64,000 nucleotides of DNA from Elusimicrobiota bacterium (GTDB lineage Bacteria > Elusimicrobiota > Elusimicrobia > UBA1565 > UBA9628): contig JANRKA010000084.1 in the NCBI GenBank assembly GCA_033875325.1, positions 4,716 to 68,715 on the forward strand, written 5' to 3'. Each line of letters starts with the position of its first letter. Within the stretch, counting starts at the first letter, position 1. The notes below the pieces were generated by a model. It was given only the letters and a program-made list of their open reading frames with translations, searched no databases and had not been told where the DNA came from. Shown here piece by piece: positions 7,104-57,273 of this stretch. The translations under genes were made by a program, and so were the position numbers.

Positions 7104-7143
7104 CCCTCTTACATACGAACGAGGGGGGCCAAAAGTTCCCGGA

Positions 7144-11634: not shown

Positions 11635-11640
11635 CTTCCG

Positions 11641-19031: not shown

Positions 19032-19079
19032 GCCTCCACCGTATAGCATTGGTAATAGATAAGCCTCAAAAGGAAACAC

Positions 19080-20336
19080 ATGCGTAAGCTCATCGCCGCC
19101 GTCCTGATTCTCGGCATCGTCTCCCCGGCCTCCGCCGGCAACTGGGACTGGCTCACCCAATACAAGCGGCCCAACCTCCACTGGGGCCAGCTCGCGCTCC
19201 ATCCTTATTACAAGCTCACCCAGATCTACGACTCGAACATCTACCTCGTGCCGCCGCCCAACGGCGGCTTCTCGGTCGGCAGCGGCGTGCGCGGCTCCTG
19301 GATCACCCGCAACGACCTCGGCCTGGAGACCGTGCTCCCCATCGGCAACCTGCAGAAGGTCTCCGCCGGCTACCTGTTCCAGTCCGACAAGTATTCGACC
19401 CAGCCCGAGCTCAACGACACCATCAACCAGGTCGCGCACCTGGACTACGAGTACCGCGGCGCCTACGGCCTGACGGCCCGCGTCGGGGACCGCTACGAGA
19501 ACACCACCGACCAGGCCTTCTCCCAGCTCGTCGAGCGCGCGCGCCGCTGGTCCAACCGGGCCGGCGCCTCGTTGGACTACCGCCCCGAGAACGGGCGCCT
19601 GGCCGGCGGCATCGACGTCTCCCAGACCACCCACAAGTACCTGCCGCCCGCCTTCGCCCGCCTGCTCAACCGCTACGAGCAGCGTTTCGGCTTCAATCTC
19701 GGCTACATGGTGATGCCCAAGACCAAGGCCTACGCGTCCTACCACCGCGGCGTCATCCATTACACCGTCGGCCGCCAACTGCCCGACCAGGACAAGAACA
19801 GCAAGTCCCACAACTTCGGCTTCGGCGTGGAGGGCCAGCTCACGCCCAAGCTCGAGGGCCGCGTCGAGACCGGCATGACCCACCGCGAGTACGACGAGGC
19901 GCCCATCGGCGCCAACACGCGCACGACGAAGAACCTCACCGTGGCGACCTACCTGACCTACAAGCCGCAGGACCGCACCACGGTCGCCTTCCGCGCGTCG
20001 CGCTACCTGCAGGAGTCCATCTTCGCCGGCAACCGCTTCTACATCAGCAACGACGTGGGCCTGGACGTCTCGCACAAGCTGCCCTACAAGTTCTCCGTGG
20101 GCGGCGGCGTCGCCTTCGGCCTCGACAAGTACCCCGACGTCGTCACCGCCTCCTCGGGCGCGCGCGGCCAGCGCCGCGACGACATCTACCAGGGCGGCGC
20201 CTGGCTCGAGTACGACATCCAGGAGTGGCTGACGACCGGCATCTCCTACGTCTACCGCGAGCGCAACTCGACGCTCCCGGCGGACTTCAACTACGAGGAC
20301 CAGCGGACGGCCGTGAACCTGGCGCTGAAGTTCTAA
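19080..20336 (+). CDS. Outer-membrane beta-barrel protein of polysaccharide loci
   Basis: It has a signal peptide ...SPASA, alternating beta-strand pattern throughout, and a terminal ...NLALKF. It is the first gene of the EPS locus. Confidence 0.7.
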   Translation: MRKLIAAVLILGIVSPASAGNWDWLTQYKRPNLHWGQLALHPYYKLTQIYDSNIYLVPPPNGGFSVGSGVRGSWITRNDLGLETVLPIGNLQKVSAGYLFQSDKYSTQPELNDTINQVAHLDYEYRGAYGLTARVGDRYENTTDQAFSQLVERARRWSNRAGASLDYRPENGRLAGGIDVSQTTHKYLPPAFARLLNRYEQRFGFNLGYMVMPKTKAYASYHRGVIHYTVGRQLPDQDKNSKSHNFGFGVEGQLTPKLEGRVETGMTHREYDEAPIGANTRTTKNLTVATYLTYKPQDRTTVAFRASRYLQESIFAGNRFYISNDVGLDVSHKLPYKFSVGGGVAFGLDKYPDVVTASSGARGQRRDDIYQGGAWLEYDIQEWLTTGISYVYRERNSTLPADFNYEDQRTAVNLALKF

Positions 20337-20356
20337 GCAGGCTATAATAGCCCGCG

Positions 20357-21280
20357 ATGAACCGACAGGCTCTGTGGGCCCCGTCCGCCGCGCTCCTGGT
20401 CGCGGCCCTGTCCGGGTGCATGAGCACCCCGCTGCACGGCGAGCAGAAGGAGCCCGCGGTCCGCATCGTCCCGTTCGCGCTCCCGCCGCAGCCTGACGGG
20501 ACGGTCTCGGCCGCTCCCGACCCCGAAGCCGCGCCGTTCGCCCCGGAGCCGGTCAAGACCGAGGTCGCGGTCCGTCCCATCGAGGCCGCCAGGCCCGAGC
20601 CCGCGAAGCCCGAGCCCGCGAAGCCCGAGCCGAAGGCGGCGCCCGCGCCGGAGCCCGTCCCCGAGCCGGTCAAGGCGGCCGCGGCCCGTCCCGCTCCCGC
20701 GCCGGAGGCGGCCAAGGCCGCCGACAGCAAGGAGGCGGCCGCCATCGCGGCGGCGATGATGCAGGTCGCCCGCTCCAAGACCGACTACAAGATATCCTCG
20801 GCCGACCTGGTGGCCGTGACCGTGTACCAGGACCCGGACATGTCGCGCAAGGTCCGCGTCAACAGCAACGGCACGGCGGCGCTGCCCCTCATCGGGGCCG
20901 TCAAGATCGGCGGGCTCTCCCTGCTCGACGCCCAGGCCGTCATCGAGACGAAGCTGTCGAAGTTCCTGGTCAACCCTCAGGTCTCCCTGTTCATCGAGGA
21001 GTACGGCAACAAGCTCGTCTTCGTCATGGGCGAGGTCCAGAAACCCGGCTCCTACCCCATCCCCACCGAGAAGAGCCTCACCGTGCTCGAGGCCATCAGC
21101 ACCGCGGGCGGCTTCACGCCCATCGCGGCCCAGGACCGCACCAAGGTCCTGCGCAACGTGGGCGGAGCCAGCGTGACCTTCACCATCGAGGTCAAGGCCA
21201 TCACCCAGGGCGGACAGAAGGACAAGGACATCGTGCTCGAGCCCAACGACGTCATCTACGTCCCCCAGAGCTTCTTCTAG
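20357..21280 (+). CDS. Polysaccharide export lipoprotein (Wza/OPX family: Poly_export + SLBB)
   Basis: Lipobox ALSGC, then an Ala/Pro/Glu-rich linker with AKPEP repeats. Blocks YKISSADLVAVTVY, NGTAALPLIG and KDIVLEPNDVIYVP are present. TATAAT lies 8 nt upstream of the ATG. Confidence 0.85.
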   Translation: MNRQALWAPSAALLVAALSGCMSTPLHGEQKEPAVRIVPFALPPQPDGTVSAAPDPEAAPFAPEPVKTEVAVRPIEAARPEPAKPEPAKPEPKAAPAPEPVPEPVKAAAARPAPAPEAAKAADSKEAAAIAAAMMQVARSKTDYKISSADLVAVTVYQDPDMSRKVRVNSNGTAALPLIGAVKIGGLSLLDAQAVIETKLSKFLVNPQVSLFIEEYGNKLVFVMGEVQKPGSYPIPTEKSLTVLEAISTAGGFTPIAAQDRTKVLRNVGGASVTFTIEVKAITQGGQKDKDIVLEPNDVIYVPQSFF

Positions 21281-24774: not shown

Positions 24775-26021
24775 ACGCGACCCGGACGGGTTTCGGCACG
24801 GCCACCGTGCGCCTGCCCAACCCTATGGTCTTGATGGTCTGGTTGACCGTATTCGTGCCGGGGCATCTCTACTTGTGGGCCGTGGAGCGCGCCTTCGCCG
24901 GGCTCGTGCTCTTCGCGGCGGTGTTCCTGAGCCTGGCCCAGACCGCCCCCTGGGAGACGCGCCGCCCCTCCCAACGCGCGTTGGCCTTCGTCTTCCTCAT
25001 TCAGTTCCTCTACGCGGTCTCCTATGTGTACTCGACGGCGTTCAACGGCATCGAGACCGGCATGCGCGACGCCTTCGAGATGCTGCGCTACGTCATCGTC
25101 GGCGGCTTCGCCTTCTACGTCATCCGCCACGCCGACGCCAGCGTGCGCGACGCCGTCGAGAGGGCTCTGTCGGTCATCCCCTACTACTCCTTGTTCGTGC
25201 TCGCCTGCTTCTCGCGTTCCGTGCCGGTGCTCACGGGACTGTTCAAGGACTTCCTCTACGCCCAGACGAAGACCTCGGTCGGCGCGACGACCGGGCAGTT
25301 CCGCGTCGCGGCGCCCTACGCCAATCCCAACTACCTGGGTTACGCGTGCGCTCTGGGGCTGGCTTACTTCCTGTTCTTCGGCCGCTCGCGCCTGCGGTTC
25401 CTCCACGCCGGGGCCATGCTCGTGGCCATCTTCTCCACCGGCAGCCGCACGGCCTGGATCGCGACGGGCGTCATCCTGGCCTACGCGGCGGCGGCCTACG
25501 CCTACCAGGGGCTGGTGCGCGTGCGCCTGCGCTACGCCCTCCAGCTCAGCCTCGGCCTGTTCGTCCTCGTCGTCGCCGGCGTGCGCCTCTCGGGCCGCAT
25601 CATGGAGAACCCGCGCGTGCGCCGCGTGGTCACCGCCGTGCACCGCGGCGGCCTGCAGGAGGAGTCCAACGCGTCCAAACGCCTCGACCAGTTCCGCGAC
25701 GCGCTCTCCTACATCGAGCGCTCGCCGGTGCTGGGCTGGGGCCCCTCCAAATACGAGACCATGACCTACGTGGACAACCAGTACCTGCTCTGGCTGCTGC
25801 GCAACGGGGCGTTGGGCACCGCGGTCATCCTGGCCGCGCTGGCCATGGCGGGTTGGCGCCTGGTCGTCTCCACGCGCGGCGACCCGCTGGCGATGGCCGG
25901 CGCTCTCGCCTTCCTGTCGGCCTTGGCGCTGATGCTCATGACCGGCCAGTTCCTCGACAATTTCCGCCTGCTGTTCCTGACCGGCTTCATCGCGGTCGCC
26001 ATACATCAGAGGCGGGCGTGA
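24771..26021 (+). CDS. Wzy-type polymerase-like membrane protein
   Basis: ATG 24771 (MNATRTGF...) is in the frame of track ORF 23910..26021. It is polytopic, with blocks STGSRTAWIA and VDNQYLLWLLRNGALG. Confidence 0.7.
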   Translation: MNATRTGFGTATVRLPNPMVLMVWLTVFVPGHLYLWAVERAFAGLVLFAAVFLSLAQTAPWETRRPSQRALAFVFLIQFLYAVSYVYSTAFNGIETGMRDAFEMLRYVIVGGFAFYVIRHADASVRDAVERALSVIPYYSLFVLACFSRSVPVLTGLFKDFLYAQTKTSVGATTGQFRVAAPYANPNYLGYACALGLAYFLFFGRSRLRFLHAGAMLVAIFSTGSRTAWIATGVILAYAAAAYAYQGLVRVRLRYALQLSLGLFVLVVAGVRLSGRIMENPRVRRVVTAVHRGGLQEESNASKRLDQFRDALSYIERSPVLGWGPSKYETMTYVDNQYLLWLLRNGALGTAVILAALAMAGWRLVVSTRGDPLAMAGALAFLSALALMLMTGQFLDNFRLLFLTGFIAVAIHQRRA

Positions 26022-27748
26022 GCGTCCTGCTGCTCGCGGCGCTCGCGGCCCACGCGGGCCCGGTCCCGGCGGCCTTATGCCGCGGCGGCCGGCCGGCCAT
26101 GCCCGTCGTCGTCGCGGCCTCGGCGTCCGGCCGCACGCGCCGCGCCGCGGCCGACCTTGCCGCGTCCTTGGGCCGCGTCTGCGGAGCCGCGTTCAAGGTG
26201 CGCGAAGGCGACGGCGCGACCGGGCTCGCCCTGGGCACGGCCGCCGACTTCCCGGCCTTGGTCCCGGCCGGCGGATTCGACGCCCCCGAGCCGATGCGGC
26301 GCGAGCAGTTCCTGCTGCGCTCGGGCCCGGAGGGGCTTCGCGCCGTCGGCGCGACCGAGGCCGGCGTCGAGGCCGCGTCGGCCGAGATCCTGAGGAGGGC
26401 CGGCTGGCGGCGCTACTTCCCCGGTCCCGCCTGGGAGGTCGTGCCGTCGCGTCCGGACCTGGCGCTGGCCGCCGACGAGACGAGCGCGCCCGCCTTCGCG
26501 GCGCGGCGCATCTGGTACGACTTCGGCTACCTCGACTCGTCGCGGTCGGCCTACGACGAGTGGGCGCGGCGCAACCGCGTGCCGGGCGGCTTCGAGCTGC
26601 GTACCGGCCACTCCTTCGACGCGGTGCGCGCCCGCCACGAGGCCGAGTTCGCCGCGCACCCGGAGTACCTCGCCTTGGTGGGGGGGCGGCGCGTCTCCGA
26701 CAAGTTCTGTCTCTCCAACCCCGCGTTGCGACGCCTCGTCGTCGAGGACGCGCTGGGGCGGCTGCAGCGCGGCCGGGCCGACAGCGTCTCCCTCGAGCCT
26801 TCCGACGGCGACGGCTGGTGCGAATGTTCGGCCTGTCGGGCCCTGGGCGGCCCCAGCGACCGCCTGGCCTTGCTGGCGACGGAGGCCGCCGCGGCGCTGG
26901 CGGAGCGTTTCCCGGGACGCGTGGCCGGCTTCTACGCCTACCACCGCCACTCGCCGCCTCCCAAGGCCCGCCTGCCGGCCGGCATCGTGGTGAGCGTGGC
27001 CGCCGCGTACCAAGCTTCCGGCTGGACGACCGAGTCCTTGCTCGAGGCCTGGCGCGAGAAGACGACCTCGCCCCTGGGAGTGCGCGAGTATTACGGCGTG
27101 TTCAAATGGCACCAGGGACTGCCCGGGCGCATGCGCGGCGCGGACCTCTCGTATCTGGCGCGCAGCATCCCGCGCTACCACGCGTTGGGCGCGCGCTTCA
27201 TGTCGGCCGAGAGCGGGGAGGATTGGGGCGCGCACGGCCTGGGCCATTACGCGGCGACGCGCATCCTCTGGGACCTCTCCGAGGCCGGCCGCGTGGACGC
27301 CATCAAGGAGGAGTTCCTCGAGGACTGCTTCGGGCCGGCCAAGGCGCCCATGCGCCGCTGGTACGCGGCGGTGGACGGGTCGCGCGGCCTCGCCGAGCGC
27401 GAGGTCCCGCCCGCGCTCGTCGCCGAGCTCTACGGCCGCCTCGCCGAGGCCTGGCCGCTCGCGGCCGACGCCGCCGCGCGCCGGCGCCTGGCGGACCTGG
27501 CTCTCTACGCCCGTTTCGTCGAGCTGCACGCGGCCTATTCGGCCGCCGGGGCCGGGCGGGGGGAGGCCTTCGCCGCGCTGGTGCGCCACGCGCGGCGCAT
27601 GAGGGGCCGCATGCTCGTGCACCTCAAGGGGCTCGAGGAGTGGCTGCCCGCCCGCGACCCCGCGGCGAAGCTGCCGCCCGACGACGGCGCGCCGGAGTAC
27701 ACCCAGGCCGAGGCGGAGGCCGTCCTGACGGCGGGAGCGGCGAGGTGA
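26018..27748 (+). CDS. DUF4838-like protein (glycoside-hydrolase-like fold, function unknown)
   Basis: GTG 26018 is in the frame of track ORF 24875..27748. It has an N-terminal signal-like segment and the characteristic SLEPSDGDGWCECSACR block. Confidence 0.55.
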   Translation: MSVLLLAALAAHAGPVPAALCRGGRPAMPVVVAASASGRTRRAAADLAASLGRVCGAAFKVREGDGATGLALGTAADFPALVPAGGFDAPEPMRREQFLLRSGPEGLRAVGATEAGVEAASAEILRRAGWRRYFPGPAWEVVPSRPDLALAADETSAPAFAARRIWYDFGYLDSSRSAYDEWARRNRVPGGFELRTGHSFDAVRARHEAEFAAHPEYLALVGGRRVSDKFCLSNPALRRLVVEDALGRLQRGRADSVSLEPSDGDGWCECSACRALGGPSDRLALLATEAAAALAERFPGRVAGFYAYHRHSPPPKARLPAGIVVSVAAAYQASGWTTESLLEAWREKTTSPLGVREYYGVFKWHQGLPGRMRGADLSYLARSIPRYHALGARFMSAESGEDWGAHGLGHYAATRILWDLSEAGRVDAIKEEFLEDCFGPAKAPMRRWYAAVDGSRGLAEREVPPALVAELYGRLAEAWPLAADAAARRRLADLALYARFVELHAAYSAAGAGRGEAFAALVRHARRMRGRMLVHLKGLEEWLPARDPAAKLPPDDGAPEYTQAEAEAVLTAGAAR

Positions 27749-32784: not shown

Positions 32785-33674
32785 GGACCGTCCTGCTCAC
32801 CGGCGCGACGGGTTTCGTGGGGTCGGCCGTCGCGCCCGCGCTCGCGGCCGCCGGCTGGACCGTGCGCGCCGACTCGCGCCGCCTGACCCCGGACGCGGAC
32901 TGGTCCGACGCCCTGCGCGGCGCGGCGGCCGTCGTCCATCTCGCGGCCCGCGCCCATCGCCTGGCCGACGGCCCCGCGCAGGCCGGCGAATACCGCCGCG
33001 TCAACGCGGAGGCCACCGAGACCCTCGGGCGCGCCGCCGCCGCCGCGGGCTGCCGCTTCGTGTTCCTGAGCTCGGTGAAAGCCGTCGGCGAGGCCACGCC
33101 GCCCGGCCGCCCCTGGAACGAGGACGCGCCCTGCGTCCCCGAGGACGCCTACGGGAGCAGCAAACTCGACGCCGAGCGCCGACTGGCCGCCGTCGCGGGC
33201 CTGTCGTGGTGCGCGCTGCGTCCGCCGCTCGTGTACGGCCCGGGCGTCAAGGCCAACTTCCTGCGGCTGGTCACGGCCGTGGACCGCGGCGTCCCGTTGC
33301 CGCTGGCGACCGTGGACAACCGCCGCTCTCTGCTCTTCGTCGGCAACCTCGCCTCGGCCGTCGTCCGCGCGCTGGAGGTCCCGAAGGCCGTCGGGCCCTT
33401 CTTCATCCGCGACGGCGAGGACCTCTCCACGCCCGAGCTGCTGCGCCGCATGGCCGCCGCGTTGGGGCGGCCTTCCCGCGTGTTCCCGTTCCCGCTCCCG
33501 CTGCTGCGCGCCGGCGCGTCGCTGCTCGGCCGCGGCCCCGAGGCCGACCGCCTGCTCGGCGACCTGGCCGTGGACGACGCCCGCCTGCGCGCCGCGCTGG
33601 ACTGGACCCCGCCTTTCACCGTGGACCAGGGCCTGGCCGCCGTCGCCCGCTGGTACCGGGAGGGCGCCGGGTGA
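32781..33674 (+). CDS. NAD-dependent sugar epimerase/dehydratase (SDR)
   Basis: GTG 32781 (GTGA overlap), Rossmann motif LLTGATGFVGS and YGSSK (YxxxK). Confidence 0.8.
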   Translation: MRTVLLTGATGFVGSAVAPALAAAGWTVRADSRRLTPDADWSDALRGAAAVVHLAARAHRLADGPAQAGEYRRVNAEATETLGRAAAAAGCRFVFLSSVKAVGEATPPGRPWNEDAPCVPEDAYGSSKLDAERRLAAVAGLSWCALRPPLVYGPGVKANFLRLVTAVDRGVPLPLATVDNRRSLLFVGNLASAVVRALEVPKAVGPFFIRDGEDLSTPELLRRMAAALGRPSRVFPFPLPLLRAGASLLGRGPEADRLLGDLAVDDARLRAALDWTPPFTVDQGLAAVARWYREGAG

Positions 33675-34231
33675 AGCGCCTCTTCGACGCCGTCGCCTCG
33701 GCCGCCGCGCTCGCGCTCCTGTCGCCCGTCCTGCTCGCGGTGGCCGTCGCGGTGAAGCTCACCTCGAAGGGCCCCGTCCTCTACTGGTCCGACCGCGTGG
33801 GCCGCGCCAACGCCCTGTTCCCGATGCCCAAGTTCCGCACCATGCGCACGGACACGCCCGAGGTCGCCACGCACCTGCTGGCCGGCGCGGACTCCTACCT
33901 CACGCCCGTCGGCGCCTTCCTGCGCCGCACCAGCCTCGACGAGTTGCCCCAGCTGTGGTGCGTGCTCAAGGGGGACATGAGCCTCGTGGGGCCGCGTCCC
34001 GCGCTGCACAACCAGCATGACCTCATCGCCCTGCGCACGGAGAAAGGCGTGCCCGCGCTGACCCCGGGCGTCACCGGCTGGGCTCAGATCAACGGCCGCG
34101 ACGACCTGCCCATCCCGGTGAAGGTGGACTACGACGCGGAGTATCTGGCGCGGCGCGGCTTCCTCTTCGACCTGCTCATCCTCTGGCGGACCGTCTTCAA
34201 GGTCGCCAGGGCGGAGGGGGTCAAACACTGA
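33671..34231 (+). CDS. Small phosphoglycosyl transferase (bacterial sugar transferase, PglC/WbaP-C-terminal type)
   Basis: GTG 33671. Blocks [44 protein letters not shown] are present. Confidence 0.85.
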
Positions 34232-35391
34232 TGCGGCTCGCCTATCTCTCCGATTGGAAGCGTTGGCCCTGCGAGGAGGCCCAGCAGGAGGAGATCTTCG
34301 CCAAGGAGTTCGCCGCGCTCGGCCACCGCGTCCACTTCGCGTTCTTCGTCCCGGACCTGCCGGAGGCGGAACGCCGCGAGACCTGGCACGGCCAGCCGGT
34401 GACCTTGTTCCGCCGCGACCGCGGGCAATACGGCCGGCTCAGCCGCTGGTTGTCCGACCTCCTGCTGACCGGCGCCGTGGACGCCGTCCAGGTGCGCAAC
34501 GACCCCGGCTACGCCTCGCTCGCGCACGGGTTGGCGCGCAAGCACCGCGTGCCCTTCGTCTTCCACCTCTCCATCCTCAACGGGCCGGTGCTCGTCGAGG
34601 AGGCGTCCGAGGAGCCGTTCCCGCGCTCCTGGCTGCAACGGGTGAAGGGCCTCGTCGGCGGACGGCTCGTGGACCGCGTCGCGCGTTCCTGCGACCTGCT
34701 CCTGCCCATCTCGGAGGCCATGGCCGCCCATTACGCCGGGCTCGGCCGGACCGGGCCCTCGGTCGCGCTGCCCATGGGCTGCCGCGGCGCGGCCGCATGG
34801 CCGGCGCCCGGGCCGCGGGATTTCGTCGAGGCGCTCTACGTCGGCTCGCTCGACCGCAACCGGCGGCTGGACTTCCTGCTGCGCGCCCTCGCGCGCGCGC
34901 GCGTCGCCCAGCCGCGGCTGCGGCTGAGCTTCCTGGGCTCGGCGCGGCGCCCGGCGAGCCTGGACTTCCTGCGCGCGCGGACGAAGGCCCTGGGTCTGGA
35001 GGAGGCGGTGCGCTTCGAGGAGCCGGTGCCGCGCGCCGCGGTGCCCGGGCGCATCGCGGCCGCGGACTTCTGCGTCTCGCCCGTGCCGCCCACGCCGTAT
35101 TTCCTGCTCAGCTCGCCCACCAAACTCATGGAGAGCCTGGGGGTGGGCCGCCCGGCGGTCGCCAACGACATCCCCGACCAGGCCGTCCTGCTCGCGGACT
35201 CGGGGGGAGGGTTGTGCGTGTCCTATGAAGAGGCCGCCTTCGGCGACGCCATGGCCGCGCTGGCCGCCGACCCGGCGCGGCGCGAGGAGATGGGCCGGCG
35301 CGGCGCCGCGCACATGGCGGCGCACCGCGACTATGGACTTCTCGCGCGACGCGCGCTCGCCGCCTACGCCCGCGTGGGGGTGAAGGCATGA
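34231..35391 (+). CDS. Glycosyltransferase family 4
   Basis: TGATG junction. The C-terminal GT-B region is SPTKLMESLGVGRPAVANDIPDQ. Confidence 0.75.
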   Translation: MRLAYLSDWKRWPCEEAQQEEIFAKEFAALGHRVHFAFFVPDLPEAERRETWHGQPVTLFRRDRGQYGRLSRWLSDLLLTGAVDAVQVRNDPGYASLAHGLARKHRVPFVFHLSILNGPVLVEEASEEPFPRSWLQRVKGLVGGRLVDRVARSCDLLLPISEAMAAHYAGLGRTGPSVALPMGCRGAAAWPAPGPRDFVEALYVGSLDRNRRLDFLLRALARARVAQPRLRLSFLGSARRPASLDFLRARTKALGLEEAVRFEEPVPRAAVPGRIAAADFCVSPVPPTPYFLLSSPTKLMESLGVGRPAVANDIPDQAVLLADSGGGLCVSYEEAAFGDAMAALAADPARREEMGRRGAAHMAAHRDYGLLARRALAAYARVGVKA

Positions 35392-36464
35392 GACGCGTCC
35401 TGGCCGTCGGCAGCATGGACCATCTGACGGTCGTCGTGCTGCGCGCGCTCGCCGAGCGCGGTTTCCGAGTCGCGGTCGCCGGCACGGGAGAGTCCGCCTC
35501 CGTGCGCCTCTCGCGGCGCTGCGCGGAATTCATCCGCGTGGCCGAGGACGACGAGGAGATGATGGCCGCGAGCGACGCCGTGCTCGCCTCCGTCGAAGCC
35601 GCCGCCCGCGAGACCGGGGCCGAACTCGTCGTGCCCGTGGACGTGGCCGGCGCGCTCGTGGCGCACCACCTGCGCCCGCGCCTGCCGGGGGTCTCGTTCT
35701 ACCCCTTCGCCGAGCCGGAGACCTTGAAGGCGCTCGACGACAAGTGGCTGTTCCACGAGACGCTCGCCCGCCACGACCTGCCGCGGCCCGAGGCTCGCCT
35801 CGTCTCCGGGCCCGAGGAGGCTCGCGCGTTGCCCTTGCCCTTCGTGCTCAAGCAGCGCCGCGGCGCGGGCGGCCACGGCGTGCGCCTGCTGCGCGACGAG
35901 GCCGAGCGCGAGTCGGAGCTGGCCGCGCTGACGCCCGAGGACTGGCCGCGGGTCGCGCAGGCCTTCGTGCCCGGGCCCGACGTGGACGTCAGCTTTCTGG
36001 CCGACCGCGGCCGCCTCGTGGCCTACGCGGTCCAGATGCGCGAGCGCGGCGCCATCGAATACTTCGACGACGCGGGAGTCGCGGACTTCGCCCGGCGCCT
36101 GGCCGCGGCCACGGGCTACACGGGCCTGGCCCACGTGGACATGCGCTACACCGACGCGAGCCGCCGCGAGGCCCTGCCCATCGAGTGCAACCCGCGCTTC
36201 TGGGGCTCCTTCTTGCACATGACCGGCCTGGGCACCGACTTCCTCGGGCTCGGCCTGGAGCTGGCGGCGGGCCGCGTCCCGACTTCGCCGCCCGCGCCCG
36301 TGGGCACGGTGCACGGGGCGCGCGCCGCGCTCAAACGCGCGCTGACGGGCGGGGGCCTCTCGGGCCCCGCCTGGGCGCACCTGCGACAGATGTTGTTCGA
36401 TCCGCTGCCGGAGCTGCGCAAGGCCGCGCTCAACGCGCTCGGCCGGGGGGAGGGTTGGCCGTGA
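35388..36464 (+). CDS. ATP-grasp enzyme, module 1 of three paralogues
   Basis: ATGA overlap. It has a pre-ATP-grasp N-terminus, then DDKWLFHE, LPFVLKQRRGAGGHGV and IECNPRFWGSF. Confidence 0.75.
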   Translation: MRRVLAVGSMDHLTVVVLRALAERGFRVAVAGTGESASVRLSRRCAEFIRVAEDDEEMMAASDAVLASVEAAARETGAELVVPVDVAGALVAHHLRPRLPGVSFYPFAEPETLKALDDKWLFHETLARHDLPRPEARLVSGPEEARALPLPFVLKQRRGAGGHGVRLLRDEAERESELAALTPEDWPRVAQAFVPGPDVDVSFLADRGRLVAYAVQMRERGAIEYFDDAGVADFARRLAAATGYTGLAHVDMRYTDASRREALPIECNPRFWGSFLHMTGLGTDFLGLGLELAAGRVPTSPPAPVGTVHGARAALKRALTGGGLSGPAWAHLRQMLFDPLPELRKAALNALGRGEGWP

Positions 36465-38602
36465 AGCGCGCGCTGATCGTGTCGGCGATGGAGAACGTGG
36501 CCCTGCAGACCATGCGGGCGCTGGGCGAGGACGGCGTCGCCTGCGTGCTGGCCGGCGTCGGCCCCGGGCGCGTGCCGCGCGCCTCGCGTTACTGCGCCGA
36601 CTACGCCTCGGTCGCCGCTTCGGAGGAGGCGCTCGCCTTGGGTTCGCCCGAAACGCTCGACGCGATCGTCGAGCTGGCGCAGAGCAGCGGCGCCGAGGCC
36701 GTCCTCCCCGTGGACGTGGCGGGCGGCCGCCTGGCCCCGCGCCTGCGCGAGCGGCTGCCCGGGCTGCTCTTCCTGCCCACACCGCCGCCCGAGGCGCTGG
36801 CGCTCAACGACAAGTGGGCCTTCTCCCGCTTCGTCGCGGGCCTGGGCCTGCCCCAGCCCGGCACCTGGCGCGTGGAGACGCTCGAGCAGGCCCTGGCCCT
36901 GCCTTTGCCCCTCATCCTCAAGCCCCTCGACGACGCGGGCGGGCGCGGGATCGTCGTCGCGCGCGACGCGGCCGCGCTGCGCGCCGCCTTGGCGCCCGGG
37001 GGCTTGCGCCTGCCCTGCCTCGCGCAGGAGTTCCTGCCCGGCGACGAGGTGAGCATGAGTTTCTGCGCCGACGAGGGGCGCCTGCTCTCTTGGACCATCC
37101 ATATCCGCCGCCCGGGCGGCGTGCTCGAGGACCTCGACGACCCGCGCGTGACCGAGTTGGGGCGCAAGGTGCTCGCGGCCGTGCGCTACCGCGGCATCGG
37201 CAACCTCGACATGCGTTACCCCTCGGAGGGCCCCTCGCGCGTGTTGCTCATCGAGTGCAACCCGCGCGTGTGGGGCAGCTTCGCCTACGCCCGCGCCATC
37301 GGCGCCGACATGCTCGTGCCCGCGCTGGCCCTGGCGCGCGGGGAAAAACCCGCGCCGCGCGCCGCACCGCCCGTGGGTTTCTGCCCCGGCCTGGTGGGCA
37401 CGGCGCGCGGGCTGCTCGCCGGGCGCTCCTCGGGCGCCGCGGGGGCGTCCTATCTGCGCACCAAACTCGCCGACCCGGGTCCGGAGCTCGCGAAAGCCGC
37501 CCGCATCGCCTTGCGCCGCGCCTCGGACCGCGACGAGCGCCGCGTGCTCGTCCTGGCGGCGATGGAGAACCTCGCGCTGTCGGTCATCCGCACCTTGGGC
37601 GCGAAGGGCTGCCGCGTGACCGTGGCCGGGGCGGGCGAGGGACGCCTGGTGAGGCTGTCGCGCCATTGCGCGGAGTTCATCCCCATCGCGCGGGACGCGG
37701 CGGAGCTGGCGGCGGCGGGCCCGGAGGTCGTCGCCGCCGCCGCGCGCGCGGCCGCGCGCAGCGGCTCGGAGCTCGTGGTGCCTTCCGACGTCCCGGGCGC
37801 CCTTCTCGCGCACGCGCTCGAACCGCGCCTGCCCGGCGTCGCGTTTTTCCCGTCGCCCGACCCCGCCGTGCTGCGGCGCATGGACGACAAGTGGGCCTTC
37901 TACGGCTTTCTGGGCGAACACGGCCTGCCGTCTCCCAAAACCTGGCGCGTGGACGGGCCCTCGCCGGAGGGCCTGCCGCTGCCGGTGGTCATCAAGCCCC
38001 TCGCCGACTCGGGCGGGCGCGGCGTGGCCGTCCATCACACGGCCGCCGAACGCGACGCGCGCGTCGCGGCGGGGCCGCACCCGCTCCTGGCCCAGGCGTT
38101 CGTGGACGGCCAGGACGTGGACCTCAGCTTCCTGGCCGACCGCGGCCGGCTCGTGGCATGGTCGGTGCAGGTGCGGGAAGCCGGCGCCGTGGTCTACATC
38201 GACGACCCGGCCGTCGTGGACATCGGGCGGCGCCTGGCCGCGGCTTCGGGCTACCATGGCCTGGCGCACATAGACATGCGTTACGACGGCCCGGGCCGCG
38301 AAAAGGTCGTGGTCATCGAGTGCAACCCGCGGTTCTGGGGCACCTTCCAGTACACGCTCGGCCTGGGCGTGGACTTCCTCGGCTTGGGCCTGGAGATGGC
38401 GCGCGGCGCTGCGCCCGCGCCCATCGCCGCCGCGCCGGTCGGCGCGTGTTTCGGCCTGTGGGGGACGCTGCGCCGTCTGGCGCGCGGCCGTCCCGTGACC
38501 GCCGCGTCCCGGGTGTACCTCTGCCAGAAACTGGGCGACCCCGGCCCGGAGCTGCGCAAAGGCACGCGCGCCCTGCTGGGCATCCGGGAGGACGGGCCGT
38601 GA
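36461..38602 (+). CDS. Tandem double ATP-grasp protein (modules 2 and 3 fused in one frame)
   Basis: GTG 36461 (GTGA overlap). There is no stop codon before 38600. Two full copies of the module are present (NDKWAFSRF...IECNPRVWGSF and DDKWAFYGF...IECNPRFWGTF). The junction reads ...RRASDRDERRVLVLAAMEN with an in-frame GTG at 37544. Confidence 0.7.
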   Translation: MKRALIVSAMENVALQTMRALGEDGVACVLAGVGPGRVPRASRYCADYASVAASEEALALGSPETLDAIVELAQSSGAEAVLPVDVAGGRLAPRLRERLPGLLFLPTPPPEALALNDKWAFSRFVAGLGLPQPGTWRVETLEQALALPLPLILKPLDDAGGRGIVVARDAAALRAALAPGGLRLPCLAQEFLPGDEVSMSFCADEGRLLSWTIHIRRPGGVLEDLDDPRVTELGRKVLAAVRYRGIGNLDMRYPSEGPSRVLLIECNPRVWGSFAYARAIGADMLVPALALARGEKPAPRAAPPVGFCPGLVGTARGLLAGRSSGAAGASYLRTKLADPGPELAKAARIALRRASDRDERRVLVLAAMENLALSVIRTLGAKGCRVTVAGAGEGRLVRLSRHCAEFIPIARDAAELAAAGPEVVAAAARAAARSGSELVVPSDVPGALLAHALEPRLPGVAFFPSPDPAVLRRMDDKWAFYGFLGEHGLPSPKTWRVDGPSPEGLPLPVVIKPLADSGGRGVAVHHTAAERDARVAAGPHPLLAQAFVDGQDVDLSFLADRGRLVAWSVQVREAGAVVYIDDPAVVDIGRRLAAASGYHGLAHIDMRYDGPGREKVVVIECNPRFWGTFQYTLGLGVDFLGLGLEMARGAAPAPIAAAPVGACFGLWGTLRRLARGRPVTAASRVYLCQKLGDPGPELRKGTRALLGIREDGP

Positions 38603-39588
38603 GCGCCGCCGTCGGCCTCGTCGTCATCGGCCGCAACGAGGGCGCTCGCCTGGAGCGCGCGCTGCGTTCGGGTTTGGACGCGGGGCTGCCCGTGGTCTAC
38701 GCCGACTCGGCGTCCACCGACGGCAGCGCCGAACGCGCCGAGGCGTTGGGCGCCATCGTCGCGCGGCTGGACCCGTCGCGGCCCTTCGGCGCGGCGCGCG
38801 GCCGCCATGAGGGCTTCGCCCGGCTCCTGGAGGCGCACCCCGCGCTCGAGGCCGTGCAGTTCCTCGACGGCGACTGCGAGCTCGAGCCGGGCTGGCTGGA
38901 GACGGGCCTTGCGGCCCTGCGCGCCGACCCGCGGCTCGGCGGGGTGTGGGGCACACGCGTGGAGCGCGAGCCGGGCTCGACGATTTTCCACGAGCAGCTG
39001 GAGCTGGAGTGGCGCATCCCGGCCGGTCCCGCGACCTGGTTCTGCGGCGACGCGCTCATCCGCGCGGCGGCCTACCGCGAGTCGGGGGGCTTCGATCCCG
39101 CCCTCGTGTCGGGCGAGGAGTCGGACCTGTGCGTGCGGCTGAGGGCCAAGGGTTGGTCTTTGCTCAAGCTCGACGCGCCCATGTCGCGCCACGAGGCGGG
39201 GGAGTTCGGCTTCTCCCAATGGTGGCGGCGCGCCCAACGCACCGGCACGAGTTACGCGGTCGCCACGGCCAAACACGGCGGCCTGCGCGCGTCGTACCGG
39301 GCCCGCAAGATCGTCCGCATCGCGGTCTGGGCGGGTCTGGTCCCGGCGCTCGCCCTGGGCGGCGCGCCGTTCACGAAGGGGGCCTCCTTGCTCCTACTCG
39401 TTGCCTACCCCGCGTTGGCGTGGCGGGCGCGCCGCGAGGGCCGCGGCCAGGGACTCTCCGGGCGGGCGTTGACGGTGTACGCGCTGTTCACCGTGCTCAA
39501 CCGCTTCCCGCAGTTGCTGGGCGTGTTGGCGGTTTGGCTGGGCGTGGACCGGCGCCGCGCCGGGGCCTACCTCTACAAGGAACGATAG
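38599..39588 (+). CDS. Glycosyltransferase family 2 with C-terminal TM segments
   Basis: GTG 38599 (GTGA overlap). Blocks VVIGRNEGARL, YADSASTDGS, QFLDGDC and SGEESDLCVRL are present. Confidence 0.75.
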   Translation: MSAAVGLVVIGRNEGARLERALRSGLDAGLPVVYADSASTDGSAERAEALGAIVARLDPSRPFGAARGRHEGFARLLEAHPALEAVQFLDGDCELEPGWLETGLAALRADPRLGGVWGTRVEREPGSTIFHEQLELEWRIPAGPATWFCGDALIRAAAYRESGGFDPALVSGEESDLCVRLRAKGWSLLKLDAPMSRHEAGEFGFSQWWRRAQRTGTSYAVATAKHGGLRASYRARKIVRIAVWAGLVPALALGGAPFTKGASLLLLVAYPALAWRARREGRGQGLSGRALTVYALFTVLNRFPQLLGVLAVWLGVDRRRAGAYLYKER

Positions 39589-45246: not shown

Positions 45247-45707
45247 TCGCGCCAGCCGCGGCGGATGAGGGCCTCGAGGCCCTCCTTGAGCGTCGCCAGG
45301 CAGCGCACGAACTCCGCGTCGGGCCGCCCCATCGGGTCGTCCACGTCGCGCTCGCCCAGTCCGGCCTGCTCCAGGAAGAGACGCGTCTTGGCGCCGAACT
45401 CGGGGAAACGGTCCACGAGGAAGTCCTGGTGGGCGCGGGTCATGGCGAGCACGAGGTCGGCGCCGCGCAAGGTCTCGCGGGTCGCCAGGCGGGCCTTGTG
45501 CTCGAAGGGCGGCACGCCTTCGGCGAGCAGGAGGCGGCGGGCGACGGAGGGCATCTCGTACCAGGGCTCGGCGGCGACGCCGCACGAGGAGAGCTCCAGG
45601 CCCAGGCCGCGCTGGGCCGACCAATGGCGCAGCAGGTGTTCGGCCATGGCCGAGCGGCAGATGTTTCCCGTGCAGACGAAGGCGACGCGTTTCACGCCCG
45701 ACATCAT
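45243..45707 (-). CDS. Low-molecular-weight protein-tyrosine phosphatase (Wzb-like)
   Basis: The P-loop VAFVCTGNICRSAMAE is present and the size fits the family. ATGA-type overlap with the upstream gene. Confidence 0.85.
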
Positions 45708-46396
45708 AACTTAGCGCGGAGGGTCAAAACGGCGTCGTCCCGGCGCTCGGCGAGGTGCTCGACGAGCGCGGCCAGGTAGAGGCTCACGCCGAGCATCTCG
45801 AAGAGTTCCTCCAAGTGGTAGCAGAGGGTGTAGAGCGGGGCGGTCCTGTCGTCGGTGAGGGAGAAGGCCTTGGCGCCGACCATCTCCATGCCCACGGCGC
45901 CGCCGACGTAGAGCGCGTCGGCCAGCAGCAGCTGGTTGCGGCGGCGCGCCGGCAGCCGCCTGAGCAGGCCGGAGAACGCGAACAGGCAGAGCAACGCGAC
46001 CGCGCCGCCGGGGATGACCCACCCGAAGTAGAAGAAGCCGTCCAGCTCGTTGAGGATGCGCAGGGCCTTGCCGGCGGATTCGTGCATGCCGACCTGCTCG
46101 TCGAGCGAGAGCAGCGCGAAGCCGGCGGCCAGGGCCTTCCAGGCGAGCCCGTCGCGCGTCTTGGCTTCGCCCGCCGCGACCGCCGCCGTCGTCAGCGCCG
46201 CCGCGGCCAGCAGCAGCACGGAGTACCAGGTCGGCAGGCTCTGCTCGAGGCCGACGCCCAACAGCCGGCCCAGGCCCAGGAGCCTGATGCCGAGGCGCTC
46301 CCTGAGGTACCAGGTGGACGCGCTCAGCGCGCCCAGCGTGAGGGCGACGCCGCAGAGCGTGAGCCACACGCGCCGCGGACGCAAGGTGAGCTCCAT
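45704..46396 (-). CDS. Hypothetical polytopic membrane protein
   Basis: It has 5-6 hydrophobic helices. The competing frame 45711..46433 is Arg/Pro-rich shadow. TATACT lies 8 nt upstream of the ATG. Confidence 0.6.
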   Translation of the reverse strand: MELTLRPRRVWLTLCGVALTLGALSASTWYLRERLGIRLLGLGRLLGVGLEQSLPTWYSVLLLAAAALTTAAVAAGEAKTRDGLAWKALAAGFALLSLDEQVGMHESAGKALRILNELDGFFYFGWVIPGGAVALLCLFAFSGLLRRLPARRRNQLLLADALYVGGAVGMEMVGAKAFSLTDDRTAPLYTLCYHLEELFEMLGVSLYLAALVEHLAERRDDAVLTLRAKL

Positions 46397-48747: not shown

Positions 48748-49848
48748 TCAGGCTTGCGTCTCGCGCGGGCCGCCGGGCGCGAGGATGAAGACGCGCAGGC
48801 CGAGGGTGTCCATGAAGCAGTAGCGGCGGCGGCACTCCTCGGCGCGCGCCGCGGCCTGCTCGGCGTCGCGGGCGAAGGCGCGCAGGGACAGGCGGCCGCC
48901 GGGCTCGAGCGCGATGAGCGGGTTGTCGGCGAGGAAGTCGGCGGCGGCGGGGGTCAGGCCCGGGGCGGCGAGGTCGAGGCTGCCGCGGCGCGCGTCGCGC
49001 CGCGCCGCGGCGTAGGCGCCGAGCAGGCATTTGTAGTCGAACACGCCGTCGCGGGCGAAGGGACGGCAGTGGCCCAGGTTCAGGACGCGGACGCCGTTCT
49101 CGCGGCACAGCGCCAGCATGAAGTGATAAACGGCGTCCGCGGCGCCTAGGCGCAGCAGCTCCGGGTCGCCGTCGCGCACGCCCATCTGCCAGAAGTGCGC
49201 CTGGTCGCCGTCGAGCTCCACGGTGCCGCCCGCGACGAGCTCGCCGCCGCCGCGGACCTGGATGAGGCGCAGCTGGCCGCCGCGCAGGCCCGCGAGGACC
49301 TCGGCGCGCGACTGCACGGAGGCGCCTTCGCCGTGGCGCGTGGTGACGAGGGGGAGATGGAAGCGGTCGTAGAACTCGGCGAACTCCGCTTCCGAGCGGC
49401 CGAGCGTCGTCGTGAAGGCGCCCGCGGCCGTGGTCCTGCGGTTGCGGTTGCGTTTGTCCTTGCCGCGTTCGGCGCAAAGGGGGGACTGGAGGTCGATGTC
49501 CATGCGGACCCAGGCGGGCAGGCGCGCCACGACGGGACCGCGCGGCAGGGGCTCGAAAGAGCGCCGCACGAAGCGCAGCACCAGGTCGGCGCCCGGCGCG
49601 CGCCGCGACAAGGCGGCGCAGGTCTCCCACAGCGGCACGGTCCCCAGGGAGCGCCGGCGGGCCCCCGGCGCGAACGCGCGTTTGAGCAGCGCGTCCACGA
49701 GGTCGGCCGGGCCGGCGCACAGCGCGGTCAACGGCTTGCCGCCGGCGCGGCCCTCGCCTTCGAGGAGGTGGAGCTCCTGGCGGCGCGCCAGGCCGACCGC
49801 GAAGCGGGCGGGTTCGAGCAGTCCGTCGAGGCCCGGGGGCAGCCGCAT
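48748..49848 (-). CDS. Hypothetical protein, possibly FemAB/CelD-like GNAT acyltransferase
   Basis: I chose ATG 49848 (MRLPPGLDG). The amino-acid composition is normal, unlike the plus-strand shadow ORFs. The C-terminal block AVYHFMLALCRENGVRVLNLG...FDYKCLLGA is weakly reminiscent of the FemAB-type GNAT fold. Confidence 0.45.
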   Translation of the reverse strand: MRLPPGLDGLLEPARFAVGLARRQELHLLEGEGRAGGKPLTALCAGPADLVDALLKRAFAPGARRRSLGTVPLWETCAALSRRAPGADLVLRFVRRSFEPLPRGPVVARLPAWVRMDIDLQSPLCAERGKDKRNRNRRTTAAGAFTTTLGRSEAEFAEFYDRFHLPLVTTRHGEGASVQSRAEVLAGLRGGQLRLIQVRGGGELVAGGTVELDGDQAHFWQMGVRDGDPELLRLGAADAVYHFMLALCRENGVRVLNLGHCRPFARDGVFDYKCLLGAYAAARRDARRGSLDLAAPGLTPAAADFLADNPLIALEPGGRLSLRAFARDAEQAAARAEECRRRYCFMDTLGLRVFILAPGGPRETQA

Positions 49849-49931
49849 GCGGCAAGTAGACCATACTGCCGCGCGAGCGCGCACCGGCAGAGCTCAGCGC
49901 GCCGGGCCGCGGAGTTGCTAGAATCCCCGCC

Positions 49932-52355: not shown

Positions 52356-54242
52356 CTAACGCGGCAGCGCCGCGTCCAGGGCCGAGGCAACGCGCGGGTC
52401 CACGGGCGCCGGGGCGGGGCGGCCGAGCCGGGCGGCCAGGCGCGACAGATAGGCCGCGGCGTGCGGGTCCGCGGCCGAAGTCAGCAGCAGTTCCCAGGCG
52501 CGCTCCGGGCGGCCGGCCGAGGCCTCGGCATGGGCCCAGAACAACTTCGCGGCGGGCAAGGCGGGCGAAGCGGCGTTGAGCGCGCGGTAGGCCGCGGCCG
52601 ACTCCTCCCAGCGGCGCAGCCACAACAGCGAGAAGGCCAGGTTCTGCCGCGCGTCGAGGTCGCCGGGGTCCAGGGCGAGGGCCTTCGCCGCGAACGCGGC
52701 GCCTTCGTCCCAGCGCCCGCGGCTCGTCGCGGCCCACGCGCGCTGCGACCACGGACGGGCGGAATCCGGCGCGAGTTCGGAGGCCAAACGCAGGCAGTCG
52801 TCCGCCTCGGACCAGGCGCCGTTGCGGCCGAAGGCCACGCCGAGGTTCAGGTAGCCGAAGGAGGCCCCCGGCTCGCCGCGCCCGGAGGCGGCCAATACGC
52901 GCAGCTCGTCGAGTCGTCCCGACGGCGCGCGCAGCGCTTCGATGGAGGCGCGCAGGACTTTCGTCAGCCACGAGGGGCGCAGGCGCTCGCTGTCGCGCGC
53001 GGCCGTCAGCGCGCGGTCCGGGTCGCCGCGCCGCAGCCAGGACGCGGCGCGTTCGGCCTCGAACTTCCAGCTGTAGGGCGGGTGGGAGTGGCGCTCCAGG
53101 AAGGCGTCGGGGTCGAGGCTCGCGCGGGCGTGCCCCAGGCTCGTCGTCGTCCACCACGCGCCGGCCGCGAGCAGCGCGCCGGAGAGGACCAGTCGCGGGC
53201 GCTCCGGCAGGCCGGGCGCGGCGCGCAGCAGGAGGAAGAGGAGGAAGGCGTAGGTGCCGACGGCCCGCACGGGCAGGACCTCGCCGTTGAGGAGGGTGGC
53301 GACCGCCAGCTCGGAGGCGCAGACGAGGAGGAGGCCCGTCCAGGCCAGGGCTTCGCGGCGGGAGCGCGCGGCGTAGACCGCGAAGGCCGCCGCCGCCGCC
53401 CACGCCGCGGCGTGCGGCGCCGCGGCGCCGGAGGGGACCATGCCGCCGTAGACTCGGAAGGAGCCCGTCACCGCGACGCGGAGGTACTCGGTGGCGGCGA
53501 CCGCGGCCTGCGGCAGCAGGGACCAGCGCCAGACGGTGGGGAAGGGAGGCGGGTCGTGGGCGAGCACGAGCCGGCGCTGGAGCAGGTAGAGGCCCGCGGC
53601 GGCGAAGGCCGCGAGCAGCGCGGCGAGCGTCGCGCGCGTCGGACGGGGGCGCAGCGCGAAGACGGCCAGCGCCAGGCCGAAGGGCAGCGCGACGGCGCTC
53701 TCGCGGGCCAGGCAGGCGACATAGACGCAGGCGGCGGCCGCGACGATGCCCGCGGCTCGACCGCCTTCGGCGGCGCGCACCCCGCGCCACGCGCCGTAGG
53801 ACGCGGGCAGGAGCAGCGCGCCGGTCGCCAGGAGCGGCGAGACGAAGAACCAGCTGTTGTAGGGGTGGACCAGCAGCAGCGCGGCTCCGCCCCAGGCCGC
53901 GGGCGGCGACGCGCCGGCTTCCAGCAGCGCCAAGGCGAGCGCGGCGGCGCAGAGCAGCCACAGCAGCCCCGCGGCCGCGCGGTAGGGGCGGGCGTCGCCG
54001 CAGCCCGCGGCGCGCGCCAGCAGGCCGAGGAACAGGTTCGCCAGAGGGCGGTAATACGCGCCGTCCTCGCCGACCGCGCGCGAGAGGAGGAGCGAGGAGA
54101 CCGGGGCCGAGGTCAGCCGGCTGCAATGCGACGGTATCTGCAGCGCGTCCTCGCGCACGAACGCGCGGCCGTGCGCGGCCCAGAGCAGCGCGGCGCCCAG
54201 GGCGGCGTAGGCCAGCGGCGCGGCGAAGCGAGAGGCGGTCAC
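52356..54242 (-). CDS. GT-C fold membrane glycosyltransferase-like protein with C-terminal TPR repeats (TMTC/PMT-like)
   Basis: GTG 54242 (GTGA overlap). There are about 11 TM helices, with an acidic first-loop motif FVREDALQI followed by YYRPLANL. The C-terminal ~230 aa are TPR-like repeats. Confidence 0.65.
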   Translation of the reverse strand: MTASRFAAPLAYAALGAALLWAAHGRAFVREDALQIPSHCSRLTSAPVSSLLLSRAVGEDGAYYRPLANLFLGLLARAAGCGDARPYRAAAGLLWLLCAAALALALLEAGASPPAAWGGAALLLVHPYNSWFFVSPLLATGALLLPASYGAWRGVRAAEGGRAAGIVAAAACVYVACLARESAVALPFGLALAVFALRPRPTRATLAALLAAFAAAGLYLLQRRLVLAHDPPPFPTVWRWSLLPQAAVAATEYLRVAVTGSFRVYGGMVPSGAAAPHAAAWAAAAAFAVYAARSRREALAWTGLLLVCASELAVATLLNGEVLPVRAVGTYAFLLFLLLRAAPGLPERPRLVLSGALLAAGAWWTTTSLGHARASLDPDAFLERHSHPPYSWKFEAERAASWLRRGDPDRALTAARDSERLRPSWLTKVLRASIEALRAPSGRLDELRVLAASGRGEPGASFGYLNLGVAFGRNGAWSEADDCLRLASELAPDSARPWSQRAWAATSRGRWDEGAAFAAKALALDPGDLDARQNLAFSLLWLRRWEESAAAYRALNAASPALPAAKLFWAHAEASAGRPERAWELLLTSAADPHAAAYLSRLAARLGRPAPAPVDPRVASALDAALPR

Positions 54243-57215: not shown

Positions 57216-57273
57216 GCGGCGATTATGCCAAATACCCCTGGCGCCGCGCCCGTCCGTATGTTATACTGAAGGC

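Follow-up and report, generated by a model that had tools for sequence, protein, structure and literature searches.

Three paralogous ATP-grasp modules, here called M1, M2 and M3, are encoded in tandem in a 64,000-nucleotide stretch of DNA (the window; assembly GCA_033875325.1, contig JANRKA010000084.1, G+C content ∼74%) from an uncultured Elusimicrobiota bacterium. As judged from the reading frames, M1 is made as a protein of 358 amino acids (aa), while M2 and M3 are made together as one 713-aa didomain protein. The predicted proteins are anciently diverged paralogues of a single, uncharacterized family of ATP-grasp ligases, and their genes lie among the glycosyltransferase genes of a region at ∼19–50 kb of the window that is, by its gene content, an exopolysaccharide (EPS) locus of the Wzx/Wzy-dependent type. 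We consider it somewhat probable that M1, M2 and M3 act as separate amide-forming tailoring ligases for the EPS repeat unit, in conjunction with an acetyltransferase of the GNAT superfamily and a small membrane protein encoded in the same locus.

Results

The M1 gene (positions 35388–36464, + strand), identified from the open reading frame (ORF) listing and its translation, encodes a stand-alone ATP-grasp ligase. Its start overlaps an upstream family 4 glycosyltransferase (GT4) gene by ATGA, and its end overlaps the start of M2 (36461) by GTGA. M2 and M3 share a single stop-free ORF (36461–38602, + strand), in which the M2 module forms the first half (about 36461–37534, +) and the M3 module the second (about 37535–38602, +). 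A family hidden Markov model (HMM) places the two domains at residues 5–353 and 361–711 of the 713-aa product, leaving a linker of ∼7 residues, and the end of M3 overlaps the start of a downstream family 2 glycosyltransferase (GT2) gene (38599) by GTGA. An earlier note on this DNA, made from its sequence without database searches, had described both the GTGA overlap of M1 and the stop-free join of M2 to M3, and the ORF listing and translation bear it out on both points.

The fusion junction and its short linker (RRASDRDE-RRV; 37514–37546, + strand) carry neither a stop codon nor a Shine-Dalgarno signal, and M2 runs into M3 as ALRRASDRDE followed directly by RRVLVLAAMEN. The same note had pointed to a GTG at 37544 as the place where a separate gene would begin. 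This codon (37544–37546) is indeed in frame with the 36461 start, since (37544 − 36461) = 361 × 3, but it is an internal Val codon. Its counterpart in both M1 (Val, GTC) and M2 (Ala) is residue 4 and not an ancestral start codon. The position in M3 that is homologous to the M1 initiator is a GAG codon (37535–37537).

M1, M2 and M3 could be aligned end to end, with pairwise identities of 41–52% overall and similarity far above chance. In BLASTP comparisons, M1 and M3 were 51% identical (E = 8e-101), M2 and M3 47% (E = 2e-88), and M1 and M2 41% (E = 6e-63), in agreement with the earlier proposals that the three modules are paralogous and that M1 and M3 are the nearest pair. The motifs quoted for them were essentially correct: LP(F/L/V)(V/I)(L/I)K and IECNPR(F/V)WG(S/T)F are found in all three modules in the alignment, and SFLADRGRLVA and GLG(T/V)DFLGLGLE in M1 and M3. 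Three other patterns were drawn slightly too generally, as M2 carries NDKWAF where the pattern has DDKW, the N-terminus of M2 is ALIVSAMEN, with A at the pattern's V, and the C-terminus of M3 is DPGPELRKG, with KG where the pattern has KA.

Membership of M1, M2 and M3 in the ATP-grasp superfamily is secure. Pfam family ATP-grasp_3 (PF02655, cut-off 23.2 bits) matched all three above threshold, with scores of 42.0, 34.5 and 40.8 bits for M1, M2 and M3, respectively, and a structural model of M3 matches ATP-grasp enzymes (see below); both results support the assignment made in the earlier note. ATPgrasp_Ter (PF15632, cut-off 29.1 bits) was passed by M2 (43.5 bits) and M3 (35.2 bits), with a match to their C-terminal halves that spans only ∼110 residues. 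M1 falls just under the cut-off (28.9 bits), and the window as a whole yielded no tellurite-resistance (Ter) genes. Among NCBIfam models, all of whose matches were far below threshold, NF005315 (PRK06849) scored highest for M1 and M3 and second highest for M2 (60.9, 34.8 and 50.2 bits for M1, M2 and M3, against a curated whole-protein cut-off of 406 bits).

The ATP- and Mg2+-binding residues expected of an ATP-grasp enzyme are a pair of Lys residues, a Gln or Glu at the hinge, and an Asp or Glu together with an E-x-N-x-R motif. Across an alignment of 57 family members, K118, K153, Q186, E261 and N263 (M3 numbering) are invariant and D246 and R265 are conserved in at least 90% of members; the equivalents of all of these residues are kept in M1, M2 and M3. 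Each module thus retains the full Lys/Lys/Gln/Asp/Glu/Asn/Arg set for ATP and Mg2+ and is, by sequence, catalytically complete.

An AlphaFold2 model of M3, built from the 57-sequence alignment, reached a predicted local distance difference test (pLDDT) score of 95 and a predicted template modeling score (pTM) of 0.92; the model covers M3, to which M1 and M2 are 47–52% identical. When this model was compared with the PDB using Foldseek, 522 matches were obtained at E ≤ 1e-3, and all 50 of the top matches listed are ATP-grasp enzymes. The best of these include biotin carboxylase domains, the L-amino-acid ligases 3VOT and 4WD3, PurK, PylC (4FFL) and 2PN1, with template modeling (TM) scores of about 0.6 and identities of 14–22%. 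A profile search of PDB sequences returned generic ATP-grasp matches only (E ≥ 3e-8). For the 713-aa fusion, AlphaFold from single sequence gave a pLDDT of 38, which is too low to describe the geometry between the modules.

Comparison with a second genome shows that M2–M3 is a genuine translational fusion and, at the sequence level, that it is old, conserved and under purifying selection. The nearest relative is an independent metagenome-assembled genome (MAG), 'uncultured Elusimicrobia bacterium NI882-mx-bin12' (GCA_965283875.1; contigs L001 and L003), which contains the same cluster. Its corresponding gene (P0002, on L001) is also stop-free across the junction (...RRVSDRDEKRVLVLAAMEN...), as expected if the fused reading frame recognized in the earlier note is real. 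Synonymous divergence (dS) between the two genomes is 0.33–0.68, and about 0.6 at the junction, where the 85 spanning codons contain 32 synonymous differences and give a ratio of nonsynonymous to synonymous divergence (dN/dS) of 0.157. The corresponding ratios are 0.18 for M1, 0.19 for M2 and 0.20 for the C-terminal part of M3. Since read-through has been kept in an independent genome at this low dN/dS, the junction is maintained as a single frame under purifying selection in both lineages.

Signals for translation initiation were compared at the junction and at neighboring genes. All six overlapping gene starts that were checked (32781, 33671, 34231, 35388, 36461 and 38599) are preceded by a Shine-Dalgarno signal, with duplex energies between −8.5 and −12.7 kcal/mol, among them 34231 (−12.4 kcal/mol) and the starts of M1 (35388, −12.7), M2 (36461, −11.8) and GT2 (38599, −10.3). 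No such duplex precedes the GTG at 37544, where the value of −3.2 kcal/mol compares with an in-gene background of −3.9 ± 2.8, and none is present at the same site in GCA_965283875.1 (−2.7 kcal/mol). The GGGAGG that serves the next gene is encoded in the C-terminal tails of M1 and M3 and has been lost from the tail of M2.

These observations bear on the possibility, also raised in the earlier note, that an indel introduced during sequencing or assembly joined two genes. It might be argued that the fusion is such an artefact, or a very recent inactivating mutation, and that there are three separate genes in truth: elsewhere M2 has an orthologue (P0052, on Logan contigs L059–L061) with a 350-aa gene of its own, unfused and followed by other genes; nearly all family members are ∼360 aa long; and when JGI metagenome contigs were scanned for the junction peptide, only remote single modules came up and no further fused copy. 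We nevertheless regard this as highly improbable, as an independent genome reads through the junction at the synonymous divergence and constraint given above, and the stop and the ribosome-binding signal are missing at the junction in both genomes. Origin of the fusion by a simple point mutation in a stop codon is unlikely, given that the neighboring genes use out-of-frame GTGA overlaps, and the junction DNA does not permit reconstruction of the mutation that made it.

The earlier note had suggested that the modules arose by a recent triplication, a proposal that the divergence data contradict. Third-codon-position identity between modules is 0.54–0.56, vs. 0.44–0.46 expected from G+C composition at third positions alone, placing these positions near saturation. 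In a bootstrapped neighbor-joining tree, M1 groups with P0042 (99%), to which it is 60% identical, and M2 groups with P0052 (90%), to which it is 53% identical; P0042 and P0052 are adjacent genes on contigs L059–L061. Separate orthologues of M1 and M2, together with 41–52% identity and near-saturated third positions, argue for an ancient divergence. Two paralogue groups, A and B, received support of 85% and 98% in the same tree. The tree does not securely place the window's modules in these groups, with bootstrap values of 17 for M3 with B and 49 for M1 with A, and we do not call M3 B-type.

A search with M3 identified ∼55 relatives at 46–61% identity, nearly all of them 350–370 aa in length. 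In an exhaustive profile search covering 1.84 billion representatives, 9210 proteins matched at E < 1e-3, and at the stricter E < 1e-30 there were 337 clusters. Of the 150 best matches, just two others contain two modules, P0068 (846 aa, with a ∼60-aa linker) and P0159 (793 aa); independent didomain fusions thus exist within the family but are rare. Remote relatives (22–38% identity) occur in Nostoc, Omnitrophota, Planctomycetota, Neobacillus, Methylobacterium and others. All but one are single-copy within ∼6 kb either side, and they are often found beside GT4, RfbB-like, Wzz and Bac_transf genes. In all, the family is present in EPS loci of at least five Elusimicrobiota-like lineages as well as Nostoc and Omnitrophota. 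In the literature on ATP-grasp enzymes and polysaccharide amidation or capsules, nothing was found on this family.

The complement of ATP-grasp genes in related loci ranges from one to three, in differing combinations. Two are present on L002 (an A plus B pair), three on L062 (one divergent), and one each on L064 and L065; L059–L061 carry orthologues of M1 and M2, and L059 is without an M3-type gene. These patterns are relevant to whether M2–M3, perhaps with M1, forms a hetero-oligomeric ligase whose paralogues are obligate partners, responsible for a single step or for a pair of coupled half-reactions of the kind seen in carbamoyl-phosphate synthetase (CPSase). ATP-grasp enzymes are usually dimers, and gene fusion is a classic 'Rosetta-stone' sign of physical interaction. 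The short linker implies a fixed arrangement, many related contigs carry paired paralogues, and P0068 and P0159 provide independent didomain fusions. Yet the sets of modules vary, from single genes (L064, L065) through M1- plus M2-type without M3-type (L059) to the A plus B pair of L002, and remote relatives are nearly all single-copy; moreover, all three modules have complete active sites, and no CPSase-specific domains were found in them with Pfam. We therefore consider a hetero-oligomer unlikely. Because the number and type of modules differ between lineages, independent, substrate-specific tailoring enzymes fit these data better than an obligate hetero-oligomer does.

Two further genes of the locus accompany ATP-grasp genes elsewhere, as an Acetyltransf_6 GNAT and a membrane protein of ∼230 aa co-occur with them in five lineages. 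In the window, the Acetyltransf_6 (PF13480) protein (378 aa; 48748–49884, − strand) is 53–54% identical to the products of genes directly next to ATP-grasp genes on L002, L062 and L065, and 38% identical to a 391-aa protein on L059. It had no NCBIfam match and no PDB sequence relative. The polytopic membrane protein (45704–46396, − strand) is 30–43% identical to proteins encoded beside ATP-grasp genes on L059, L062 and L065, and copies are located at 2749–3447 of L059, 7954–8655 of L065, 17129–17809 of L062 and 19335–20033 of L001. No Pfam or NCBIfam match was found for this protein, and its invariant charged residues include E50, E76, D98, H104, E105, R146, R152, E170, E195, E196 and E199; from its sequence, it looks like a member of an undescribed family of membrane enzymes or transporters. 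On one contig the membrane protein and an ATP-grasp module are joined: P0016 (603 aa; L066, 244–2055) consists of a module of this family whose C-terminus is fused to the membrane protein, and the membrane part shares 34% identity with its counterpart in the window. This fusion, known from a single 2.3-kb Logan contig in which a read-through error is possible, hints that the ATP-grasp module and the membrane protein may work together at the membrane.

The EPS locus begins with genes for a BBP2_2 porin, a Wza-like outer-membrane polysaccharide export (OPX) protein, a Wzc-like polysaccharide co-polymerase/kinase, Wzy, a DUF4838 protein, Wzx and a HepA/MsbA-like ATP-binding cassette (ABC) exporter. 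These are followed by a GT4, an epimerase/reductase, a 186-aa Bac_transf protein, a second GT4, M1, M2–M3, the GT2 and a further GT4 (− strand), and the locus ends with a PglF/CapD-like 4,6-dehydratase, an adenylation–peptidyl carrier–thioesterase (A-PCP-TE) protein, a low-molecular-weight phosphatase, the 230-aa membrane protein and the Acetyltransf_6 GNAT. Machinery for polysaccharide synthesis and export thus comprises an outer-membrane porin, Wza, Wzc, Wzy, Wzx, four glycosyltransferases, a phosphoglycosyl transferase, a PglF-like dehydratase and Wzb. The small Bac_transf phosphoglycosyl transferase (33671–34231, + strand) is predicted to initiate the repeat unit. It is followed by the GT4 gene that is translationally coupled to M1 (34231–35391, +), and the GT2 gene coupled to M3 occupies 38599–39588 (+).

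Two features of the locus are recorded as side observations. The Wza-like OPX protein is short (309 aa, Poly_export and SLBB domains only) and its gene directly follows that of the BBP2_2 β-barrel porin (19059–21277 for the pair, + strand). The same pair occurs on L062, and it may resemble the split export system, OPX plus porin, that has been described for Myxococcus. The DUF4838 protein (957 aa; 24875–27745, + strand) is encoded between the Wzy and Wzx genes, and occupies the same place on L001 and L002.

Genes for sugar and amino acid activation give an indication of possible substrates. A membrane-anchored Polysacc_synt_2 (PglF/CapD-type) N-acetylhexosamine (HexNAc) 4,6-dehydratase is encoded at 40748 (approximate start)–42736 (+ strand), and an aminotransferase of the LegC/PseC family at 56064–57260 (56.1–57.3 kb). 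No uridine diphosphate (UDP)-sugar 6-dehydrogenase or other uronic-acid route was found anywhere in the 64-kb window. As an amino-sugar route is encoded and a UDP-sugar 6-dehydrogenase is not, the locus points to an amino sugar, and the locally encoded candidate acceptor would be a 4-amino-6-deoxy-HexNAc rather than a uronic acid. The A-PCP-TE gene (42860 (approximate start)–45246, + strand) encodes a stand-alone protein resembling a nonribosomal peptide synthetase, with AMP-binding, PP-binding and Thioesterase domains. It scores 400 bits on TIGR01733 (amino-acid adenylation), above the 317-bit cut-off, and is predicted to activate an amino acid. This gene is common to the window and L001 and is absent from L002 and L059.

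The presence of these genes raises the question of whether the product of M1, M2 and M3 is soluble rather than bound to a polymer, either as a small peptide or modified metabolite that leaves the cell through the adjacent ABC transporter or as a modified nucleotide-sugar pool, in which case location in an EPS locus would be incidental. The ABC exporter and A-PCP-TE protein would be at hand for such a role, structural neighbors of M3 include L-amino-acid ligases and PylC, and the relatives in Methylobacterium are not obviously within sugar loci. We find this doubtful, however, as ATGA and GTGA overlaps couple translation of the modules to that of the glycosyltransferase genes on either side, the family recurs in EPS loci of the lineages listed above, and the L066 contig fuses an ATP-grasp module to the membrane protein.

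Other genes in the window lie outside this set. A 630-aa protein with a weak HTTM match and a C-terminal DCC1-like thiol-disulfide oxidoreductase domain (54239–56131, − strand) adjoins the aminotransferase. Upstream of the EPS locus, and seemingly unrelated to it, are an ORF within 6333–8168 (− strand) that carries an IS200-like Y1 transposase segment and a gene for an 812-aa protein with a spermidine-synthase-like domain (9246–11684, − strand).

Discussion

The data presented here are consistent with a model in which each module would activate a carboxylate as an acyl-phosphate and couple this to an amine, so that one amide bond is made per module. Acting as separate tailoring ligases with different substrates, M1, M2 and M3 would add amino-acid-type substituents to the undecaprenyl-linked repeat unit or to its nucleotide-sugar precursor. 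Their partners would be the GNAT and the membrane protein of ∼230 aa, joined in this lineage by the A-PCP-TE protein, and the M2–M3 fusion would probably fix 1:1 stoichiometry and proximity for two of the steps. Given the polysaccharide locus, tailoring of a ligase type is a reasonable expectation.

Several observations weigh against this model. No characterized enzyme closer than ∼20% identity was found with the PDB sequence profile or with Foldseek. ATP-grasp enzymes also form esters and thioesters, carboxylate or phosphorylate, and the best structural matches of M3 include carboxylases. Within the window, the Acetyltransf_6 gene and the aminotransferase are 10–18 kb away from the modules. 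In GCA_965283875.1, M3 is interrupted by an internal stop and several frameshifts and is spread over at least three frames, so that M3 is conceivably dispensable there. The data are also compatible both with action in series on one side chain, as in the stepwise addition suggested in the earlier note, and with action at different positions; sequential assembly of a tripeptide by M1, M2 and M3 is one possibility.

With regard to the interruption of M3, an indel error in the assembly of a long-read MAG is the likelier cause, because dN/dS is ∼0.2 and other genes of the assembly are also fragmented. Many genes are broken in this copy of the cluster (L001, 5161–8931 and 11078–12153), including a GT4 split into 67 and 233 aa and a second glycosyltransferase cut to 121 aa. 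A pseudogene was considered and rejected on the same grounds, a dN/dS of 0.20 and the other broken genes.

To our knowledge, the characterized enzymes that decorate bacterial surface polysaccharides with amino acids or amines are few; examples include the C-terminal domain of Cj1438, VpsH and the serine-adding enzyme of E. coli K40. The first of these appears to be the nearest functional analogue of M1, M2 and M3. In Campylobacter jejuni, the glucuronamide found in the HS:2 capsule is produced by the C-terminal domain of Cj1438, an ATP-grasp amidoligase of the TupA-like type; the GT2 glycosyltransferase to which this domain is fused requires the amidated sugar (PMC11800379). The systems share an ATP-grasp enzyme in a polysaccharide locus, coupling to a GT2 (by protein fusion in Cj1438 and by translational coupling of M3 here) and, as proposed for M1, M2 and M3, amide formation at a sugar within the repeat unit as it grows. 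They differ in ATP-grasp subfamily and in number, with one module in Cj1438 vs. three here, and the uronic-acid substrate of Cj1438 is without local genetic support in the window. No Pfam match of M1, M2 or M3 to the TupA-like family was found at E ≤ 1, nor any match to an NCBIfam amidoligase. VpsH of Vibrio cholerae adds glycine to N-acetylgulosaminuronic acid (GulNAcA) of the Vibrio polysaccharide (VPS), and thus offers a parallel for amino-acid tailoring of a lipid-linked Wzx/Wzy repeat unit before later glycosyl transfers; unlike M1, M2 and M3, it resembles acyl-CoA ligases and CapK rather than ATP-grasp enzymes (PMC13463779).

In fold and proposed chemistry, M1, M2 and M3 can also be compared with the L-amino-acid ligases BL00235 (3VOT) and RizA (4WD3) and with PylC (4FFL), which share the three-domain ATP-grasp fold at similar size (TM about 0.62) and carry out carboxylate–amine ligation via an acyl-phosphate. 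These enzymes are only 14–18% identical to M3, however, and act on free amino acids in secondary metabolism and pyrrolysine synthesis; they are neither found in EPS loci nor fused in tandem.

The textbook example of one chain that holds two homologous ATP-grasp units is the large subunit of CPSase, and M2–M3 likewise has two such units per polypeptide. Biotin carboxylase domains, for their part, are the top structural and sequence matches of the modules. In contrast to these enzymes, the modules are ∼355 aa long and their fusion is limited to one shallow lineage. The CPSase model TIGR01369 scored 18.6 bits against a cut-off of 1027, CPSase_L_D2 matched weakly in M2 alone (22.6 bits), and no CPSase oligomerization, allosteric or methylglyoxal synthase (MGS)-like domain was found in the modules with Pfam or NCBIfam. 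The C-terminal domain of biotin carboxylase is missing from the modules, and there is no biotin carrier partner.

A bolder possibility is that the ATP-grasp modules, the GNAT and the membrane protein, together in this lineage with the A-PCP-TE protein, constitute an undescribed system for building short peptide side chains or cross-links on the EPS repeat unit, in which each paralogue would add one residue and M2–M3 would channel two consecutive steps. We think this improbable on present evidence; if true, it would amount to a peptidoglycan-like 'peptido-polysaccharide' in Elusimicrobiota.

Taken by themselves, tandem ATP-grasp paralogues and a lineage-specific fusion represent ordinary genome evolution and a modest extension of known biology. 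The kind of enzyme and the fused double ATP-grasp architecture are known, while the uncharacterized members and the lineage-specific didomain form are new. The wider interest lies in the family, which, with ∼337 clusters at E < 1e-30, a widespread occurrence in EPS loci and no characterized member, is a plausible candidate for one more class of amide ligases that act on polysaccharides, and for which the didomain fusion and the two conserved partner genes provide concrete handles for biochemistry.

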